In this document: in pieces, positions 11,176-49,789 of the stretch
How positions within the stretch are numbered: the stretch's first letter is position 1
Layout of the letters: each line of letters begins with the position of its first letter
Source of the DNA: an uncultured delta proteobacterium
Lineage (GTDB): Bacteria > Desulfobacterota > Syntrophorhabdia > Syntrophorhabdales > WCHB1-27
NCBI GenBank assembly: GCA_963821605.1
Contig: CAWGEZ010000033.1
Location: 9,645-73,644, forward strand
DNA: 64,000 nt
Reading direction: 5' to 3'
Position numbers and translations under genes: made by a program
The notes under the pieces: model-generated
The model's database searches: none
What the model saw: only the letters and a program-made list of their open reading frames with translations
Told to the model about the DNA's origin: nothing

Positions 11176-12449
11176 GCGCTGGTCTTGCCGGGGCGGAAGC
11201 CGCCTATCAGTTGGCGAAAAGAGGCATAGATGTAAGCCTCTACGAGATGAGACCGCACCGCACCACGCCTGCCCATAAGACAGGCGACTTTGCTGAACTC
11301 GTCTGCAGCAACTCCCTTAAGTCAAAGGAACTGACAAACGCCCACGGGCTTCTGAAGGAGGAACTTCGCCTTCTCGATTCTCTCATCATGAGGGCAGCGG
11401 ACAGGACGGCGATCCCCGGAGGCAAGGCGCTGGTGGTCGACAGGACCCAATTCTCGGCGCCGAGTCAGCGACGCGATTCTGTCCGAGAAACGCGTCCGGG
11501 TCGTAAGGGAAGAGGTAGACGAGATTTCGGATGGTGTGAACATCATCGCCACGGGCCCGCTGACGAGTGAGGCCCTGTCGGGGAGCATCAAGGCGCTCAC
11601 AGGAGCAGGAAAATCTCCATTTTTTTGATGCGATATCGCCGATTGTTGATGGCGCGTCAATCAATATGGAGCACGCTTTTTTCGGCTCACGATACATGGA
11701 TGATGCCGATGATTACCTGAACTGTCCGCTCACCGAAGCCGAATACAACAGATTCTACGATGAGCTTCTTGCGGCGCGGCGCGTGGACTTGAGAGCATTC
11801 GAAGATACGCAGTACTTTGAAGGATGCCTTCCCGTAGAGGTTATGGCAGAGCGTGGAAGACAGACCCTCGCTTACGGGCCGATGAAGCCGGTGGGTATCG
11901 TAGACCCGACGCACAAAGGAGCAGCCTTACGCCATCGTCCAGCTCAGACGCGAGGATCTGGCGGGGCGCATGTATAATCTCGTCGGGTTTCAGACGAAGC
12001 TTACCTATCCTGAACAGGAGAGGGTCTTGCGGCTGATACCCGCTCTCAAGGAAGCGGTCTTTCACCGGTACGGCAGCATCCATCGAAACAGCTTCATCAA
12101 TGGGCCAGACGGTGCTGACAGCGGGTCTTCAGCTGAAGAGCAATCCTTCGGTTTTTTTTGCGGGGCAGATCACGGGTGTGGAAGGTTATGTCGAATCCAC
12201 TGCCATGGGCCTCGTCGCAGCCATCTCTGCGCTCTGCTTCATAAAAGGCAAGCCTTTCGCGCCGCCGCCACCGGAGACCACTGTCGGTGCCTTACTCGCT
12301 TACGTCACCACGCCGCGGAAAGATTTCCAGCCCATGAATGTCAATTTCGGCTTCTTGCGAATTACAACAAGAAGCGCAAGGAAGCCGTTGTTAGGAACGC
12401 CCTTGCCGCAATCGTGGCCTGGAGAGAACAGATCGAAGAGTCGCTCTAG
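11157..12449 (+). pseudogene. trmFO: folate-dependent tRNA (uracil54-C5)-methyltransferase TrmFO/Gid, at least 5 frame changes
   Basis: [31 protein letters not shown] (ORF 11046-11570), HFFDAISPIV..YFEGCLPVEVMAERG (11567-11977), [18 protein letters not shown] (11970-), [19 protein letters not shown] (12100-), and the end ..[18 protein letters not shown] start at 11157 overlaps the topA end. Confidence 0.8.
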
Positions 12450-41361: not shown

Positions 41362-41398
41362 ATTTGGATTTGTTTAGGATTTCGGATTTAGATATTGG
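41362..41398. repeat. AT-rich 'gatttgtttaggattt' repeat
   Basis: atttggatttgtttaggatttcggatttagatattgg, with a related copy at 57552-57607. It overlaps the DUF763 stop (41388-41390). Confidence 0.55.
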
Positions 41399-42470
41399 AA
41401 GTTGGCGTATGATAGCGGTTGAGTCGCTTAAATGCTTCTATCTTGTCGCGGTCGTTTATCCGTGCCTTGTCGAGGCAGGTTTGGAGGAAGGCAATCGATT
41501 CTTCGTACGTCTTTCGCTGCACCGGGAAGGGGTGGCCGTCCTTGCCTCCGTGGGCGAAGCTGAAACGGGCCGGATCCTTGAAACTCGGCGGGGCATTGTA
41601 AACGAGTTCCGATACCAGACTTAGAGCCGCTATCGTCCTTGGCCCGACACCATGGACCTGGACAAGGTCTTTGAAAGTCTCAGGATGCGCTTCATGCAAG
41701 GTCTTGAACACGCGGTCAAGCCTCCTGGCATCTACGTCCTGCGCGGTTATGTAGTGTCGTTCCGGCATTGCGAGGGCTATCTCTTTCCAGGTTTTCGACA
41801 TCCAATCAGGGTCCTGCCTTGTAAAGTCCACCGTTGCAGCGTGCACCGGAGCGCTTTCCCTGGCCACAAGGTTAAGCGTATCCTTTTGCTGGTCGCAGGT
41901 CACGCCGGTATGCGGTTCGCAGGTTAGATCAAGGTTCTCCCGTGAGAACCACTGGTAACGTCGCGCCGTGCGGGTTTCCTCACTCATGCCTTGCTGGATG
42001 ATCGCCCAGTCCCCGTCTTTCGAGAGAATGAAGGTGTGGTGGTAGATGTTGTAGCCATCCTGTACCAGGCTGTTGTCGATCTTTGCGCAAAGTCGGCTGA
42101 GAGCTATGAAGGAAGTGACGTCCATGTCCCACGCTCTGCCGTAGTCGGCCAGTTCCTCAGGTGTCCGGCGAGACGTCGCTGCCTTTCCACCGCAAATAGC
42201 CAATGGAAAATCGGAAGCGGTGTAAGCAAGCCCATCCTTGAGCGCACCGCAAAGCGTGGTAGTCAGTCCACTCGAGTGCCAATCGAAGCCGACTACGCAG
42301 CCAAATGCCTGGAACCAGACAGGATCGGATAATCTCCTCAAGACCTCCCTGGGACCGAATTCGAGGAGGATCATAGATAGGACCGCGCCAGAGAGCCGCT
42401 TCATCTTATCGAAGAGCCACCGCGGCGCCTTTCCGTAATGGAGCGGGAGCGTAGTAACGGCCCTTTTCAT
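41388..42470 (-). CDS. DUF763 domain-containing protein
   Basis: 360-aa ORF. The N-terminus LPLHYGKAPRWLFDKMKRL..RLSDPVWFQAFGCVVGFDWHSSGLTTT is as I recall for DUF763. Confidence 0.7.
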   Translation of the reverse strand: MKRAVTTLPLHYGKAPRWLFDKMKRLSGAVLSMILLEFGPREVLRRLSDPVWFQAFGCVVGFDWHSSGLTTTLCGALKDGLAYTASDFPLAICGGKAATSRRTPEELADYGRAWDMDVTSFIALSRLCAKIDNSLVQDGYNIYHHTFILSKDGDWAIIQQGMSEETRTARRYQWFSRENLDLTCEPHTGVTCDQQKDTLNLVARESAPVHAATVDFTRQDPDWMSKTWKEIALAMPERHYITAQDVDARRLDRVFKTLHEAHPETFKDLVQVHGVGPRTIAALSLVSELVYNAPPSFKDPARFSFAHGGKDGHPFPVQRKTYEESIAFLQTCLDKARINDRDKIEAFKRLNRYHTPTSNI

Positions 42471-42724
42471 GCTTTCACGAGAAAGACCGTATCTTTCTCG
42501 TGCACCTTCTCCTTTACCCTGATGCCGACGTCGGTGCCCGGACCAGCCTTCTGCACACTTTCGTGCTCGACCTGCATGGAGTCGACCGATTGCTCAAAAT
42601 CCGTGGAGTGACCTTTTATGTGGATCTTGTCACCCACTTTCATCTCCCCACCGGTGATCCTGATTGCGGCAACACCGATCTTGCCAAAGTATTTTTCGAC
42701 CGTTCCAATGGCAACCTCTTCCAT
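42467..42724 (-). CDS. small EF-Tu domain-2-like beta-barrel protein ('translation elongation factor-like protein')
   Basis: 85-aa ORF ..KIGVAAIRITGGEMKVGDKIHIKGHSTDFEQSVDSMQVEHESVQKAGPGTDVGIRV.. with a 4-nt overlap with the DUF763 gene. Confidence 0.65.
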   Translation of the reverse strand: MEEVAIGTVEKYFGKIGVAAIRITGGEMKVGDKIHIKGHSTDFEQSVDSMQVEHESVQKAGPGTDVGIRVKEKVHEKDTVFLVKA

Positions 42725-43184: not shown

Positions 43185-44169
43185 TCACGTCGGGAACAAT
43201 TGCCCGACCAGCCGGTTGAGCATTGCGCCGCCCTTTACCTCGGTCTCGAAGAGGGGCACCAGAGCGCGCACCTTGATCACCGAAGATCTCCCATATCTCC
43301 TGCATATGGTCATCCTGCATCTTGACGCGGTTCCGCACGAACTCAGCCGCGTCCTTGCTAACCTGCTCCTTCTGAATAATGCCGTTGACTACCACTCCGC
43401 CTACCGGGATTCCAAATTCATAAAACCAGTTGATGAAGCGGGTAATAACGGCGATGGGCAGGCTTTCGGGCAGGGTCACGAAAAAGAAGGCGGTCAGGGC
43501 ATCGTCAGTAAGCAGGCTCTGCGCCTTTGCCATGCGCTCCTTGAAACCGAGCAGGTACTCCATGAGGGGGTCTGCTTCCTTTTTCTTCGTAAAAGAGAGC
43601 ATCTCTCTGAGAGACTTCGCCTCTTCCCGGCTCTTGAGCATTTTTTCCACCCAGAGGGAGTAAACTTTCGACATGCCAAGGAGTCGCCTTGCGTTTGCCG
43701 TGGGGGCTGTGTCAAATACGTAGAAATCGTATTCATCCTTGAACATGAGGTCGGTCATGTTCTCGAACATAGCCGATTCTTCGAAGGCCGGGTTCATGGT
43801 GGCGGACTCGACGAACTCATCCGCCTTCGTCGTGATATCGGCGAACTTGAGAAACCAGTTGATCTTTTCGCGGATCTCCTGTTTGGACCGCTCGATCGTA
43901 TCTCTTGTATCGATTTCAAAGGCGTAGCACATCTTCTCGTCGCAGACCACGGCCGGTTTTCCAAAGACATCCTGCTCCATGAGGTTCGAAAGGCTGTGGA
44001 CGGGGTTCGTGGAGGCGAGCAGAGTTTTTCTCCCCTGCTTGGCTGACCATAAGGCCGCTGCCCCTGCCATAACGGTCTTTCCAACACCACCCTTACCGCC
44101 AAAGAAGATGTACTTGAGCTTGGGGTGCTCCTTCATGTACTGGATCATACTCCTGGTTACCTGCTGCAT
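43185..44169 (-). CDS. ArsA/Get3(TRC40)-family ATPase, paralogue 1 (1 frame change near 43275)
   Basis: P-loop FFGGKGGVGKT, STNPVHSL and FDTAPTANARRLL. The C-terminus IKVRALVPLFETEVKGGAMLNRLVGQLFPT* is recovered in another frame, with the stop at 43185-43187. Confidence 0.8.
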
Positions 44170-44189
44170 CGTCAGACTCCTTTATAGTC

Positions 44190-45170
44190 TCAATGGTCCT
44201 CAAACATCTGTTCGGCCAGTTTCTCGATCATGGCAAGACCGGTGACGTCCCGCTCCATTTCAGGTACCCAGGCCAGGATCTGCCCCTTAAACGTGTCATC
44301 AATCACCTTGAGGTACTTATCCTGCATTTCCAGGCGGTTCTTCAGGTATTCAGGGATGTTCTGGCCCTTGAGATCGGCCGGGAGAACGCGGTTCACGATG
44401 TAGCCGCTGAGCGGCACATCGAACTTTGCAAAGAGCCCCGCTGCCTTGAGCGTGTCATTTATGATCATCTCCTCGGGTGTCACAACGAAGAAGAATGCTG
44501 TCTTCTGCTTGTCCGTAAGGATACCCGAAGACTTGTTGATGCGTTCCTTGATGTAGAGGAGTTCATTCAGGATCGCATCCTCGTCGAGTTCCTTGTCGCG
44601 CCGCATGACCGCCGCCACCTGATCATACTCCCTCATCTGCTGCCGGAGGCCCGTGATCTTGTCAATCCACGCATCATAGACGGACGCCATGCTCAGGTAG
44701 TACAGGGCGTGACCAAGAGGGACAAGGTCGTAAATGTAATAGTCGTAGCCGCCTTTCACGACGATATCGACCACCTCGTCGAAGATAGCGCTCTCCTCCA
44801 TGGCAGGCTCTGCAGCAGCGGCCTGGATATAACTCTCTATCTCTTCAGGGATCTGATCCATGCCGTACATGTCGAGAATTTTCTGTCGTATCTCTTGCTG
44901 ATACTCCTTCACCCGCCGGTCTGCATCGATCTCCTGAGCGTAGAGGTTCGGCATGATCTCAGTGGGCCCTTTTCCAAAGATGTTCTGCTGAAAGATGTCG
45001 CTCAGTGATGCCTGCGGATCAACGGAGAAAACGAGTACCCGTTTCCCCTGTTTTGCGAGGTAATACGCAGTCGCCGCTGAGAAAGTCGTTTTGCCAAGCC
45101 CACCCTTGCCGCCGAACATGATGTAGTGCCTGTCAGGATACTGGTCAAAAATCTTAGTCAGTGAAATGGT
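44190..45170 (-). CDS. ArsA/Get3(TRC40)-family ATPase, paralogue 2 (start codon unclear)
   Basis: P-loop MFGGKGGLGKTT, SVDPQASLSD and YDLVPLGHALYYL. The frame is open upstream of the ATG at 45119 (..ISLTKIFDQYPDRHYI) back to about 45170 without ATG/GTG/TTG. AAGGGGG lies at about 45172-45178. Confidence 0.75.
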   Translation of the reverse strand, partial: TISLTKIFDQYPDRHYIMFGGKGGLGKTTFSAATAYYLAKQGKRVLVFSVDPQASLSDIFQQNIFGKGPTEIMPNLYAQEIDADRRVKEYQQEIRQKILDMYGMDQIPEEIESYIQAAAAEPAMEESAIFDEVVDIVVKGGYDYYIYDLVPLGHALYYLSMASVYDAWIDKITGLRQQMREYDQVAAVMRRDKELDEDAILNELLYIKERINKSSGILTDKQKTAFFFVVTPEEMIINDTLKAAGLFAKFDVPLSGYIVNRVLPADLKGQNIPEYLKNRLEMQDKYLKVIDDTFKGQILAWVPEMERDVTGLAMIEKLAEQMFEDH

Positions 45171-45279
45171 ACACCCCCTTAAAAACAGTGATTAGTGATC
45201 AGTGTTACCAGTGTTAAGTAGCTCGAGCTCAACACGCAACACATAACACATAACACTCTGCGGCCCTGCGTCGTGCGCG

Positions 45280-45718
45280 TCAATCCAGGGCGTCTACTAA
45301 ATCCCTCTCCATCAACATTCTTCGCTTCCAGCCGTGGAGGCGAGGAAGCATGTGAGGCAAGAGTCTCAGGCCGTAGTAAGGTCTGACGATGGGCAGGCCC
45401 AGCATGTCACCAAACATGACAACGGTTAAAAGATCGCCCAGACCGGCTCTTGTCTTTGCCGCAAAAACGACATGATCGTGCACCGCAAAGCCGAAGAGGA
45501 ACTCCTTTATCGCGTTGAGGAGCCCGCCGCTAGTCATATAAATCCCCGGTTGGCAAGTAAAAAGCTCCAGGTGCGCGATCAAGGCCATCTGACGAGGATC
45601 ATGAGCAGGAAGCCCCAGATGCAAGGCGCGCGAGCCTTGGTCGACCGGAGGCGTACTTGACTGTACGTCGGAGGACGCGGGCGCAGCCGCAACGCCGCAG
45701 ATGGACTTGATTGCTCAT
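45280..45718 (-). CDS. small conserved hypothetical protein S1 (paralogue of S2); 5' end uncertain
   Basis: Core GGLLNAIKEFLFGFAVHD..MFGDMLGLPIVRPYYGLRLLPHMLPRLHGWKRRMLMERDLVDALD. Candidate starts are MTSGG at 45537, or AGGAGG-ATG at 45718, which needs one frame change. Confidence 0.45.
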
Positions 45719-45724
45719 GACCTC

Positions 45725-46006
45725 CTACGCCAGGGCGTCGGTCAGATCCTTCTCCCGCAACATCCTCCGCTTCCACGTGGAGATCTGGGGCACCACATAC
45801 GGCAGCAACCGTAGGGAATAATACGGCGGCAGTATAGGCACGCCAAGCATGTCTCCCATCGTGATCAGGATGAAGAGATGCTCCATGCTGGCCCTGGACT
45901 TCAGGGCGAAGCGCGCGGAATCATGCGCTGCAACGCCGTAAACGAACTCTTTTGCTGCCTGGAAAATACCGCCCTTCTTTTTCTTTCCTTCTTCGTCTTT
46001 CGACAT
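45725..46006 (-). CDS. small conserved hypothetical protein S2 (paralogue of S1)
   Basis: MSKDEEGKKKKGGIFQAAKEFVYGVAAHD..TMGDMLGVPILPPYYSLRLLPYVVPQISTWKRRMLREKDLTDALA, with an AAGGAG ribosome-binding site upstream. Confidence 0.5.
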   Translation of the reverse strand: MSKDEEGKKKKGGIFQAAKEFVYGVAAHDSARFALKSRASMEHLFILITMGDMLGVPILPPYYSLRLLPYVVPQISTWKRRMLREKDLTDALA

Positions 46007-46102: not shown

Positions 46103-47807
46103 TTAAGCCTTTGCCGCCGCCTCCGCGGCTGCTTGCCTTATCTGTGTTCTTATGCCTCTGTAGCGATTAAAAGCTTTAGCGCCTTCTATGCCGAGCGCTA
46201 TGGCCGCGATGACGAGGAAGAACCCGACGAGCCCCATCAGGGTGTTTCCTACGAGGGCCTCTCCTTTCACGGCTCCGCTGAAAACCTTGCTCGAGCAGGC
46301 TCCAGGATGTGTAAATCAGCGCAGCTATCGTCGTAATAAACATGAAGATCATAGGATAAAAGGTCCACGCTATAGGTTTACCCTCAGACATGAGCCATGC
46401 TGTCACGAGCATCAAGGCGAGGGATGCCATCAGCTGGTTTGCGCCGCCGAAGAGTACCCAGAGGTACTGCCACCATCCTGTCATGATGAGTATTGCTGCC
46501 AGGATGCATGCTATGAATGTGCCGATATGGGCATTCCTGAAAACGGGGCTCACATCACTCAGAAGCTCTGACGTTGCCACCCTCATAAACCTGATGACCA
46601 GCTGCATGATCGTGACAGCCAGAACGATCATCATGACGCTGCCGTACGAATTGCCCAGTTTGGCCGGGAGCCCGAGTGCACCGAGAAATTTCGACACGCC
46701 GGCCGCAAAGATGACCCCCGGGCCCTTTGCGGCTGCTGCTCCGTACTCGGCGGATGAGGCATAAATTGTTCCCGCGATGATCAGGGCAAAGAGGGCGAGC
46801 ATCATCTCGACAAACATGACGCCGCCTCCCACGGGACGGGCATCAAGCTCGTTCTCCAGTTGGCGCGCGGTCCCGGAGCTCGATACGATGCTGTGCCAGC
46901 CCGAGATGGCCCCGCAGGCGATCGTGACGAACATGATAGGCCAGATGGGACCGATCTTGATGGAGAAGGACGTGTAGGCAGGCAAGGTAAAATCGGGATG
47001 GAGTATAAAAACGCCGATGACACCAAAGAACAGACCAAGGAATACGATGTACGACGCAACGTAGTTTATAGGGAGTGCGAACCTCCAGATGGGCAGTACC
47101 GCGGCGAAATAACAGAAGACACAGGCAGCGATAGTCCAGAGTATCCTGCTGTTTGCGAGGCTCGCCCCGAGCACCTTGTCAGACGGAAGCTGAGTCCCGA
47201 GAAATATGCCGAGCAGGGCAATGATCACGCAGACGGCGGTTGTGAGGAGGATGTCCTTGCGCCAGCGATAGATCATCTGTCCGGCGAGCACGCCCCCGAT
47301 AGTGAGGAGCAGCCATGCCATGGGAGCTGCCTTAAGACCGATAACCGTGCTTACGACAACGTTTCCGAAGGCACCCGCGATGAGCAGGAGATAGAAATAG
47401 ATGAAAGAGAGCAGGATGACGCGTGCCCTCGGGGAGATCAGGCGGTGGCTCAAGCCCCCGAAGGAGGCGCCTTCGTTGCGCATGGCCACCATGGCGCTCG
47501 TGTAGTCGTGCACCCAGCCTATGAACAGGGCACCCCCCAGGATCCATATGAGCGCAGGAAGCCAGCCCCACTGGATGGCAATAATCGGTCCGATAATGGG
47601 CGCAGCGCCTGCGATCGATTTGAACTGGTACCCGAAGAGGATGTTTTTGCTCGTGGGCATGAATTCCACACCATCCATGTACATCTTGGCTGGTGTGGCC
47701 CTTTTTGGGTCGGCCTTGATGATTTTCGTGTCGATATACTTTGCGTAGAACCGGTAGCCGAAGAAGAACACAATAAAGCCTAAGATAAGAACGACGACTG
47801 CATTCAT
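46103..47807 (-). CDS. cstA: carbon starvation protein A (CstA family peptide/pyruvate transporter) (1 frame change near 46280)
   Basis: Start MNAVVVLILGFIVFFFGYRFYAKYI at 47807 (GGGGAGGGG ribosome-binding site). Polytopic CstA body. The last TM ..GEALVGNTLMGLVGFFLVIAAIALG.. is recovered in another frame, with the stop at 46103-46105. Confidence 0.85.
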
Positions 47808-47923: not shown

Positions 47924-49789
47924 ATGGATACGTTTGATGTAATCGTTGTAGGGGCAGGGTCATGCCGGCTGTGAAGCTGCGCTCGCCGCGGCCAGGCTTC
48001 GGGCCAGTACGCTCCTTCTCACCATGAACCTCGATCATGTTGCCTACATGTCATGCAATCCGGCCGTGGGAGGTCTGGGCAAAGGCCATCTCGTCAAAGA
48101 GATCGATGCGCTGGACGGGGAGATGGCCCGGAACATCGACGCCACCGGTATCCAGTTCAGAACGCTCAATATGACAAAGGGTCCGGCGGTCAGGGCGAGC
48201 AGAGCCCAGGCTGACAAGATCAGATACAGCCAGAGAATGAAGAAGGTGCTGGAGGGGACGGACGGCCTGCTTCTGCGTCAAGCCACGGTAGAGAAGATTC
48301 TCGTGGAAGAGGGCAGGGCGGTTGGTGTTGAGACGGGGTGGGGAGAAAGGTTTTACGGGAAAACAGTCGTGCTCACGACGGGCACCTTTCTGCGGGGCCT
48401 TATTCATGTCGGGCTCGAGCAGTTCGAGGCCGGAAGGATGGGCGATTTCGCGTCAGTGGGGCTCTCCGAGTGCCTGCGGAAGCTGGGCTTCGAACTGGGA
48501 AGGTTGAAGACGGGCACGTGCCCGCGGCTGAACGGCCGTACCATCGATTTCTCAAGAATGCAGGCCCAGGCCAGCGATGACCCACCCAAGCCCTTTTCAT
48601 TCTTGACAACCAGACTCACTCAGCAGCTGGTCCCCTGTTTCATGACCTACACAAACGAGACTACCCATGAGATCATACGGTCCGGGCTCGGCCGGTCCCC
48701 TCTGTACAGCGGCAAGATCAAGGGCACCGGTGTCAGGTATTGCCCATCGATAGAAGATAAGGTCGTGCGATTTGCGGAAAGGAAGCCGTCACCAGATCTT
48801 TCTTGAGCCCGAAGGGCTCGATACCGTGGAGTATTATCCTAATGGGCTTTCGACCAGCCTGCCGCTCGATGTGCAGCTTGCGATGCTCAGGAGCATCGAG
48901 GGCCTGGAGCGGGTGGAGATCACACGGCCGGGCTACGCTATCGAGTATGATTTTGTCTATCCGACGCAGCTTTTTCCCACGCTCGAAACGAAACAGGTGG
49001 GCTATCTCTTTTGCGCCGGGCAGATAAACGGAACGACCGGGTATGAGGAGGCGGCGGCCCAGGGCCTCATGGCCGGCATCAATGCGGCCTTGAAGGCGCA
49101 GCGGCAACGGCGAGTTCGTGCTGCGTCGCGACGAGGCGTACATCGGAGTAATGATCGACGATCTCGTCACCAAGGGCGTGGATGAGCCTTACCGTATGTT
49201 CACGTCCCGGGCAGAGTACAGGCTCCTGCTGCGAGAGGATAATGCTGACCTGAGGCTCACGGAGAAGGGTTACAGGATAGGCCTCGTATCGAGGGAACGG
49301 TACGAACACGTGGTTGAAAAGCGGGCAGCAATGGAGCGTCTCAGCCAAACGCTCAGGGAAAGGAGACTCTTTCCCACGGCGGCTACCAATGAACAGCTCA
49401 AAGAGCTGGGATTGGAAGGGATAAAGAACCCCACGACCCTGGAAGAACTGCTCAAGAGACCCGGCATTACCGTGGCTACATTACGTCGACTGGTTGAGGG
49501 GCTGGACGGTATACAGGATGTTGTTGCTTATCAGGTGGAGTTGGATGTAAAATACCGGGGCTACACCGACAGACAGATGGAGATGATCTCCAGAGTGAGC
49601 AAGCTGGAGGAGAGAAAGATACCGCCTGACATTTCGTATGGAGAGATTGCGGGTCTTTCCAGAGAGGTCATAGAGAAACTGTCAAAGATCAAACCCGTCT
49701 CCTTCGGCCAGGCGTCAAGGATTTCCGGGGTTACCCCTGCCGCGGTGAGTGCCCTTCTGATTCATTTCAAGAAGAGAGGGCTCCTCTGA
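47924..49789 (+). pseudogene. mnmG: tRNA uridine-5-carboxymethylaminomethyl modification enzyme MnmG (GidA), at least 3 frame changes
   Basis: MDTFDVIVVGAG at 47924, then ..LLLTMNLDHVAYMSCNPAVGGLGKGHLVKEIDALDG (ORF 48024-48806), ..[22 protein letters not shown] (48772-) and ..[31 protein letters not shown] (49118-49789). Confidence 0.85.

Follow-up and report, generated by a model that had tools for sequence, protein, structure and literature searches.

Background

Operons that join a CstA-family permease to ArsA homologues were described by Castillo and Saier (Int J Microbiol 2010:187373; PMC2963123) in a purely computational study covering 26 bacterial and archaeal cases. Each contains cstA, a gene named cstX for a protein of about 90 amino acids (aa), and genes for single-domain ArsA homologues of about 330 aa, with no arsR; no ars genes were found in the cst operons. 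Adjacent ArsA pairs were noted in Pyrobaculum arsenaticum and Symbiobacterium thermophilum, and two CstX paralogues in P. arsenaticum and Thermococcus kodakarensis. The trees of CstA, CstX, and ArsA co-evolve, and in the model proposed there CstA is energised by the ArsA homologue and CstX links the two; CstX was said never to occur without CstA. The locus analysed here lies on the reverse strand of a 64,000-nucleotide stretch of DNA (the window, meaning the whole stretch) from an uncultured delta proteobacterium of the Syntrophorhabdales, contig CAWGEZ010000033.1, and comprises cstA, two small paralogous genes (S2 and S1), and two diverged ArsA/Get3-like ATPase genes, ArsA-like 2 and ArsA-like 1 (hereafter A2 and A1).

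An original prediction made from the DNA letters had proposed the ATPases and small proteins as a candidate undescribed module downstream of cstA. This novelty does not hold, as the window matches the operon of Castillo and Saier in gene set, protein sizes, lack of arsR, ArsA pair, and two CstX proteins. The CstX of that paper is taken to be the Pfam family DUF7990 by its size, its position, and its bacterial and archaeal distribution. The paper is silent on the catalytic asymmetry of the paired ATPases, which is reported here; this conserved asymmetry, the prediction of a CstX hairpin, and the probable ATT start of A2 are the new elements, and the second CstX paralogue and the ATT start are local peculiarities of the window operon. 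A literature search on DUF7990, CstX, and CstA with ArsA found nothing beyond the 2010 paper, and the cluster members looked up for 20 divergent DUF7990 proteins named no cultured isolate.

Gene order and conservation

All five predicted reverse-strand genes were confirmed between 47807 and 43185 by open reading frames (ORFs) and by tblastn with the proteins of L007, an ENA metagenome contig that is syntenic with the window at ~95.7% identity and was used to set the gene models. They are cstA (47807-46103), encoding a CstA-family permease of ~565 aa; S2 (46006-45725), a cstX gene of type A whose 93-aa DUF7990 product is 100% identical to that of the L007 gene; S1 (45537-45280), the second cstX paralogue, also of DUF7990, with 85 aa; A2 (45167-44190), whose 325-aa product is the predicted catalytically competent subunit; and A1 (44169-43185), encoding the predicted hydrolysis-deficient subunit of ~327 aa.

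For the survey of related loci, one genome per species was scanned for relatives of S2, which gave at least 561 loci; gene order was counted in the best 80 of them, 71 of which had enough flanking sequence. These 80, which include Thermodesulfobacteriota, belong to Syntrophorhabdales, Syntrophales, Syntrophobacterales, Desulfomonilaceae, Desulfarculaceae, and Desulfobacca, and further to Nitrospirota, Spirochaetes/Leptospirales, Clostridia, and Candidatus Hakubella. The order CstA, CstX, A2, A1 on one strand was found in every one of the 71 informative loci. The permease gene, which had been regarded as a mere upstream neighbour, is thus a conserved member of the cluster. The expected co-occurrence of the ATPases and small proteins was borne out for A2, A1, and CstX, but S1 turned out to be lineage-specific and cstA belongs to the unit as well.

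Compared with the window lineage, the S2-type CstX (over 79 genome loci) has a median identity of 92% and is the most conserved protein of the cluster; A2 follows with 87%, A1 with 83%, and CstA with 80%. Conservation at this level across phyla is unusually high, as a tightly interacting complex would show. Profile matches bearing DUF7990 extend further to Anaerolineae, Caldilineae, Armatimonadota, Egibacteraceae, Thermoanaerobaculia, and Bathyarchaeota. A Bathyarchaeota locus holds two DUF7990 genes, an A2-like gene, and an A1-like gene, followed by cstA in convergent orientation downstream, and locus L096 has the order CstA, CstX, CstX, ArsA, ArsA.

Two of the window genes are interrupted. 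The cstA copy has a frameshift at ~46278-46291, so that its 96-99% identity to the CstA proteins of L007 and of a further relative, L009, is spread over two frames in tblastn, and A1, compared with L007, has one nucleotide inserted near 43276. As mnmG (48024-49789) is broken up into three ORFs as well, these frameshifts most likely reflect indels of an indel-prone, long-read-like assembly and not pseudogenes; cstA is likewise split in L007.

The spacer between A2 and A1 is 20 nt in the window. Several relatives carry strongly self-pairing insertions of 97-350 nt at this place (L007, at 11349-11445, and L015, L033, L041, L056, L059, and L080), one element being common to L056 and L059; these insertions may be small mobile palindromic elements. 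On the 3' side of the cluster, the same strand encodes a protein of 85 aa whose similarity to EF-Tu domain 2 stays below the Pfam cut-off (42467-42724), and a DUF763 protein (41388-42470). Both genes are syntenic in L007, and a link of either to the cluster was not seen in other lineages.

The second CstX copy

A small gene in the position of S1, between S2 and A2, occurs only in Syntrophorhabdales (L011, L012, L007, L009). Most close relatives have a single small gene in the cluster, and a second one lies between S2 and A2 in 2 of the ~71 close loci with flank on both sides. By this distribution, S1 is a Syntrophorhabdales-specific second copy. Second copies of other kinds are found elsewhere: six loci have a DUF7990 gene between cstA and the S2-type gene, with a C-terminus ...KADFG or similar, and eight loci have one on the opposite strand, just past A1 or up to ~2.5 kb further downstream, with a C-terminus that is mostly ...ARVDI or ...SGDL. 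Another type of second copy ends in [DE]H[DE][HY]HLHG[LV].

Many, perhaps most, lineages therefore seem to combine one highly conserved S2-type CstX with a variable second paralogue, which makes the idea of two small proteins serving two ATPases a reasonable one. Two small genes and two ATPase genes do recur in L093/L094 and L096, but the particular second protein of the window is confined to its lineage and the arrangement includes cstA. The DUF7990 genes of L095 (6001-6327) and L097-L099, which are taken up again below, adjoin DUF362/MutS-like or HEM4/LysR/FdhD genes.

Asymmetry of the paired ATPases

A1 and A2 are clear members of the ArsA/Get3/TRC40 family by their profile scores. Against PF02374 (cut-off 24.3 bits), A1 scored 199.9 bits (E 7.5e-59) and A2 240.1 bits (E 4e-71), and against TIGR00345 they reached 192.6 and 239.5 bits, both above the cut-off of 135. 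Among solved structures, those of archaeal Get3, 3UG6 and 3ZQ6, come closest (E 4e-58 for A2, 2e-45 for A1), and Escherichia coli ArsA (1F48) ranks behind them.

The catalytic motifs of the two proteins differ in a consistent manner. The deviant Walker A motif GGKGG[VL]GKT noted originally is GGKGGVGKT in A1 and GGKGGLGKT in A2, and the switch regions are, as was also noted, altered differently in each protein. In an alignment of 70 A2 and 70 A1 orthologues, A2 has GKGGLGKT, switch I FSVDPQASL with its Asp retained, and switch II YDLVPLGHALYYL (DLVPLGH), whereas A1 has GKGGVGKT, switch I ASTNPVHSLS with Asn, and switch II FDTAPTANARRLL (DTAPTANA motif), all of them kept in at least 90% of the orthologues. 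An archaeal pair follows the same division, with STDPQAS and DMPPFGH in the A2-like protein and SLNPVHS and DCAAVANA in the A1-like protein. The Asn of A1 (STNPVHS) aligns with the switch-I Asp (stDPahs) of 3UG6 and 3ZQ6. In yeast Get3 the corresponding D57 is catalytic, and the D57N variant binds ATP without hydrolysis (PMC12506534). The adenine-binding Asn is present in both A1 and A2, and so is the first P-loop Lys, a residue that in the ArsA/Get3 ATPase family works across the dimer interface (PMC12415280).

The catalytic residues are thus intact at switch I of A2, but A1 has Asn in place of the Asp. The simplest reading is that A2 and A1 would form an obligate heterodimer with one hydrolytic site, in A2, and one degenerate site, in A1, that holds ATP. 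The expectation of an obligate heterodimer of specialised halves fits with this asymmetry, which is kept in the orthologue pairs and in the archaeal pair.

The proteins do not group with the ArsA of arsenite pumps, as they scored 97.2 and 91.8 bits against TIGR04291, whose cut-off is 650. As had been observed for the window, the gene list of the syntenic L007 contains no arsR, arsB, arsC, or arsD. The two ATPases lack the Cys triad that binds metalloids, and since A2 is devoid of cysteine, a metalloid site of the ArsA type is excluded. The CXXC motif of Get3 is absent too, CDFC of 3UG6 and CEFC of 3ZQ6 being aligned to IPEY in A2 and AEFV in A1. Both ATPases lie far below the NosAFP cut-off. 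A defence system was considered and rejected, as the PADLOC models gave only P-loop-level noise.

The small proteins S1 and S2

S1 and S2 share 53-54% identity over ~80 residues, which agrees with the estimate by eye that about half of the residues of these paralogues are identical. They had been placed outside any named family; their homologues belong, however, to Pfam PF25952 (DUF7990), which is named and uncharacterised. S2 has 5181 homologues, with PF25952 on all 120 among the matches listed, and the L007 protein identical to S2 has a precomputed PF25952 match. S1 has 37 homologues, 30 of them exactly 85 aa long (range 74-97) and all with PF25952, including a homologue at 94% identity for which the match is precomputed; those that are named all come from Syntrophorhabdales metagenome-assembled genomes, by which the window, too, is placed in this order. 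A local Pfam scan of S1 and S2 gave no match to DUF7990 or another relevant family.

The NCBIfam model NF041419 (cory-CC-star) matched S1 with 42 bits (E 7e-11) and S2 with 36.5 bits (E 4e-9), below its cut-off of 80. S1 ends in DALD and S2 in DALA, and neither has the C-terminal Cys-Cys of that family; judged by these scores, the two proteins are related to cory-CC-star but fall below the membership cut-off. Neither protein matched PF04328 (YbdD/YjiX) in Pfam at E up to 1, alignment of the CstX profile with E. coli YbdD by hhalign gave a probability of 0.6% and hence no homology, and tblastn of S2 against plasmids returned no match.

CstX contains a hydrophobic stretch, LFILITMGDMLGVPILPPY, at residues 44-62 of 93, with a Kyte-Doolittle value of 1.49-1.69 over 19 residues. 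It includes a conserved Gly-Asp and may be considered a borderline membrane span. In S2 the stretch is flanked on both sides by net-basic sequence, of which the near-invariant WKRRxLRE(K/R)D forms part; in S1 the flanks have no net charge, although WKRRML is retained. The suggestion that S1 and S2 might be clients of the ATPases is unlikely to hold in the sense of tail-anchored proteins, as the hydrophobic segment is central and is followed by ~30 mostly charged residues, including WKRRMLREKD. Both proteins fall outside the tail-anchor class, which has its transmembrane helix within ~30 residues of the C-terminus.

AlphaFold2 modelled S2 alone as all-helical, with a mean predicted local distance difference test (pLDDT) of 61 and a predicted template modelling score (pTM) of 0.24, and gave no usable tertiary fold. 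The tandem two-domain protein P0302 was modelled as a stand-in for a CstX dimer, P0302 itself probably being a read-through artefact of two adjacent genes. Its model reached a pLDDT of 73 (70-83 for each domain) and a pTM of 0.32, at which the packing is unreliable, and showed the hairpins more clearly than that of S2 alone, each DUF7990 domain having one long helix that turns at the invariant PPYY into a second. Foldseek found no match of this model in the PDB at E <= 0.001. From these models and the distribution of charge, a helical hairpin is predicted for CstX with modest confidence, in which the tip is hydrophobic, both ends lie in the cytoplasm, and, in S2, the flanks are basic.

Apparent fusions were not taken as evidence of association. 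The fused two-domain CstX proteins (P0001, P0301-P0304) and a 690-aa double ArsA in L091 look like frameshift, read-through, or assembly artefacts, and P0196, in which the C-terminus of CstA is joined to CstX, could not be traced to a contig. Three DUF7990 proteins (P0164, P0192, and P0238) have in common an N-terminal domain of ~100 aa with the motif R[IF]R[VL]I[ED]P.S..G...G[IV]RRYP[AS]F[IV][IV], the nature of which is unassigned.

The CstA permease

The CstA orthologue of L009 matched PF02554 with 468.6 bits (cut-off 27) and the E. coli CstA equivalog model with 190 bits (cut-off 1188). By these scores, the window-type CstA stands far from the pyruvate-transporter equivalog of E. coli. Two distant clusters have metabolic genes next to them: that of L093 (3456-5947, Bathyarchaeota) adjoins genes for a GlcD-like, lactate/glycolate-oxidase-like flavin adenine dinucleotide (FAD) oxidase and a CCG iron-sulfur protein, and that of L091 (8695-12543) adjoins acyl-CoA synthetase and 2-oxoacid dehydrogenase complex genes. 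Because oxidase and 2-oxoacid dehydrogenase genes adjoin these two clusters, there is a weak hint that the substrate of CstA might be a small carboxylate.

Translation starts and spacers

Two starts had been considered for S1, at 45718 and at 45537, and the second was retained, since the homologues of ~85 aa align from the Met at 45537. The AGGAGG-ATG at 45718 was rejected as a start of S1; it lies in the S2-S1 spacer (45724-45538, reverse strand, 187 nt) and opens a different frame that stops at 45579. This frame is not conserved in L007, L009, or L012, and the spacer of L012 is only ~20 nt long. The predicted RNA fold of the S2-S1 spacer had a z-score of -1.5, which is not significant against shuffled sequence. 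In the S1-A2 spacer (45190-45262, reverse strand), runs of GTGTTA/GTGTTG are followed by TAACAC/TCACT units and together make an imperfect long hairpin; a similar pattern with a different sequence occurs in L007 and L009. The folding energy of this hairpin was not better than that of shuffled sequence (z = +0.46).

The start of A2 is unusual. In the window, no in-frame ATG, GTG, or TTG lies upstream of the P-loop, the 16 residues ISLTKIFDQYPDRHYI preceding the P-loop are kept in all relatives, and a Shine-Dalgarno sequence, AAGGGGG, stands 6 nt before an ATT at 45167. Since the standard start codons are lacking there, translation of A2 probably begins at this ATT. The same holds more widely: in the window, L007, and 12 other loci the stretch from the upstream stop to the P-loop contains no in-frame ATG, GTG, or TTG, and these loci have a GGAGG-type Shine-Dalgarno sequence 5-7 nt before ATT or ATC. 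Among loci L011-L090, 43 have an in-frame GTG inside the Shine-Dalgarno sequence and 17 have ATG at the position of the window ATT. ATT starts are rare and are commonly linked with low or regulated translation.

Proposed mechanism and alternative explanations

The window is read here, with about an even chance of being right, as an instance of the cstA-cstX-arsA operon type that encodes a four- or five-protein membrane system, in which CstX would dock the ATPase pair on CstA and ATP would drive or gate transport. A2 and A1 would form a Get3/ArsA-type heterodimer with intradimeric Walker A motifs, both subunits binding nucleotide and only the A2 site having the catalytic switch-I Asp; the A1 site, with its Asn, would hold ATP without hydrolysing it. 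CstX (S2, together with S1 in this lineage) would insert its hydrophobic hairpin tip in, or rest it on, CstA or the membrane, and its basic N- and C-terminal helices would remain cytoplasmic and dock A2/A1 on the cytoplasmic face of CstA. The ATP-driven closing and opening of A2/A1 would then be passed via CstX to CstA and drive or gate the transport of a small carbon substrate. A precedent is offered by ArsA, which is believed to make an ATP-driven pump of the ArsB carrier and is described as passing cargo to a membrane partner under nucleotide control (PMC12415280). The same CstA-CstX-ArsA model was reached independently by Castillo and Saier from the co-evolution of trees, which supports it.

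Several points weigh against this model. Some DUF7990 genes of the AGDL/ARVDI type (L095 and L097-L099) have no cstA or ArsA gene within 6 kb, and this subfamily is, at least locally, at odds with the published claim that CstX is always accompanied by CstA. The packing and topology of CstX are uncertain because the pTM values of its models are low. Direct contact between ArsA and ArsB is itself poorly documented, and a cytoplasmic, cargo-capturing ATPase would fit export better than the uptake role of E. coli CstA. The closest solved relatives being archaeal Get3 and not ArsA also leaves room for a role in protein handling.

A protein-handling role of this sort would amount to a counterpart of the GET pathway in bacteria and archaea, in which the helical-subdomain groove of the heterodimer shields the hydrophobic CstX hairpin and delivers or inserts it at CstA, or assists the biogenesis of CstA. 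The alignment of 3UG6 and 3ZQ6 over the full length, including the helical subdomain, speaks for it, as do the single hydrophobic stretch of CstX and its lack of a confident fold when modelled alone, as for a partner-dependent protein. CstX falls outside the tail-anchor definition, however, and its conservation, the highest of all components, is unusual if it is only a client; the ATPases lack the CXXC zinc motif of Get3, and the strict linkage to a single permease family would be left unexplained. Such handling is decidedly doubtful. In a regulatory alternative, A2/A1 would read the ATP/ADP ratio and switch CstA via CstX, the carrier being driven by the proton-motive force and hydrolysis serving only to reset the switch. 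This would agree with the permanently hydrolysis-deficient site of A1, typical of regulatory nucleotide sites, with E. coli CstA, which is annotated as a pyruvate transporter and works without an ATPase, and with the low, regulated expression suggested by the probable ATT start of A2. Against this stands the strict conservation of a competent catalytic site in A2. Conservation of the whole cassette is expected equally if the ATPases energise transport, and the data do not separate the two; an energy sensor is on the whole unlikely.

The two remaining explanations are poorly supported. A self-contained module of two small proteins and two ATPases, merely downstream of cstA, as originally envisaged, would suit L093/L094 and L096 with their two small and two ATPase genes, yet no locus with enough flank lacks cstA, the archaeal locus has it too, on the opposite strand, and the second small gene between S2 and A2, found in 2 of ~71 loci, has no counterpart in the cluster of most others; this explanation is very improbable. 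That A2 and A1 are an arsenite or antimonite pump ATPase split in two genes would be in keeping with their membership in Pfam ArsA_ATPase, but the scores of 97 and 92 bits against the TIGR04291 cut-off of 650, the cysteine-free A2 without the metalloid triad, and the absence of ars genes, both from the L007 list (arsR, arsB, arsC, arsD) and from the published cst operons (PMC2963123), make it scarcely tenable.

Should the ATPase pair drive or gate the CstA permease, it would provide a second and independent example of a secondary carrier served by a Get3/ArsA-type ATPase, and a tractable system for the communication between ATPase and membrane partner. In a bolder form of the model, advanced tentatively and with rather less than an even chance, CstA-CstX-A2/A1 would constitute a new class of primary transporter, in which a heterodimer with one live and one dead site is clamped on a permease by hairpin adaptors for ATP-driven carbon transport in energy-limited anaerobes and archaea. 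The arrangement could also represent a prokaryotic link between the transport-energising ArsA and the membrane-docking Get3. The naturally D57N-like A1 offers a ready-made test of one-sided hydrolysis in the ArsA/Get3 family, and the cassette is widespread, with at least 561 species-level genomes and ~7,700 DUF7990 proteins in many bacterial phyla and archaea.

Comparison with known systems

In E. coli, cstA-ybdD and btsT-yjiX resemble the window in that a small gene (PF04328) follows a CstA-family gene. YbdD ends in Cys-Cys, whereas CstX does not, no homology between the two was detected, and the E. coli pairs have no associated ATPases. An adjacent pair of diverged Get3/ArsA-like proteins with unassigned substrate is also known from Mycobacterium tuberculosis, Rv3679/Rv3680 (BagA/BagB). 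These are not orthologues of A1 and A2, which scored 43 and 51 bits, respectively, against the BagA model (cut-off 400) and 48 and 35 bits against the BagB model (cut-off 521).

The archaeal and eukaryotic Get3/TRC40 proteins are, like A1 and A2, single-domain ATPases of the same length that align with them from end to end. The Get3 homodimer has a catalytic Asp in each subunit and a zinc clasp of the CXXC type, whereas the window encodes two diverged paralogues that lack CXXC, one of them a natural D57N equivalent; neither a tail-anchored client nor a receptor of the Get1/2 type was identified here.

In the ArsA-ArsB system the ATPase agrees with those of the window in family and in type of Walker A motif, and there too a cytoplasmic ATPase is thought to serve an unrelated secondary carrier. 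ArsA is one polypeptide of ~580-590 aa with two homologous halves, whereas two proteins of ~325 aa are found here. Three of its Cys residues bind the metalloid and each half has DTAPTGHT, in contrast to the pair described here, which has no metalloid site and one degenerate catalytic site. The cst operon differs from it further in its carrier, which is of another family, and in the addition of a putative adaptor protein, CstX.

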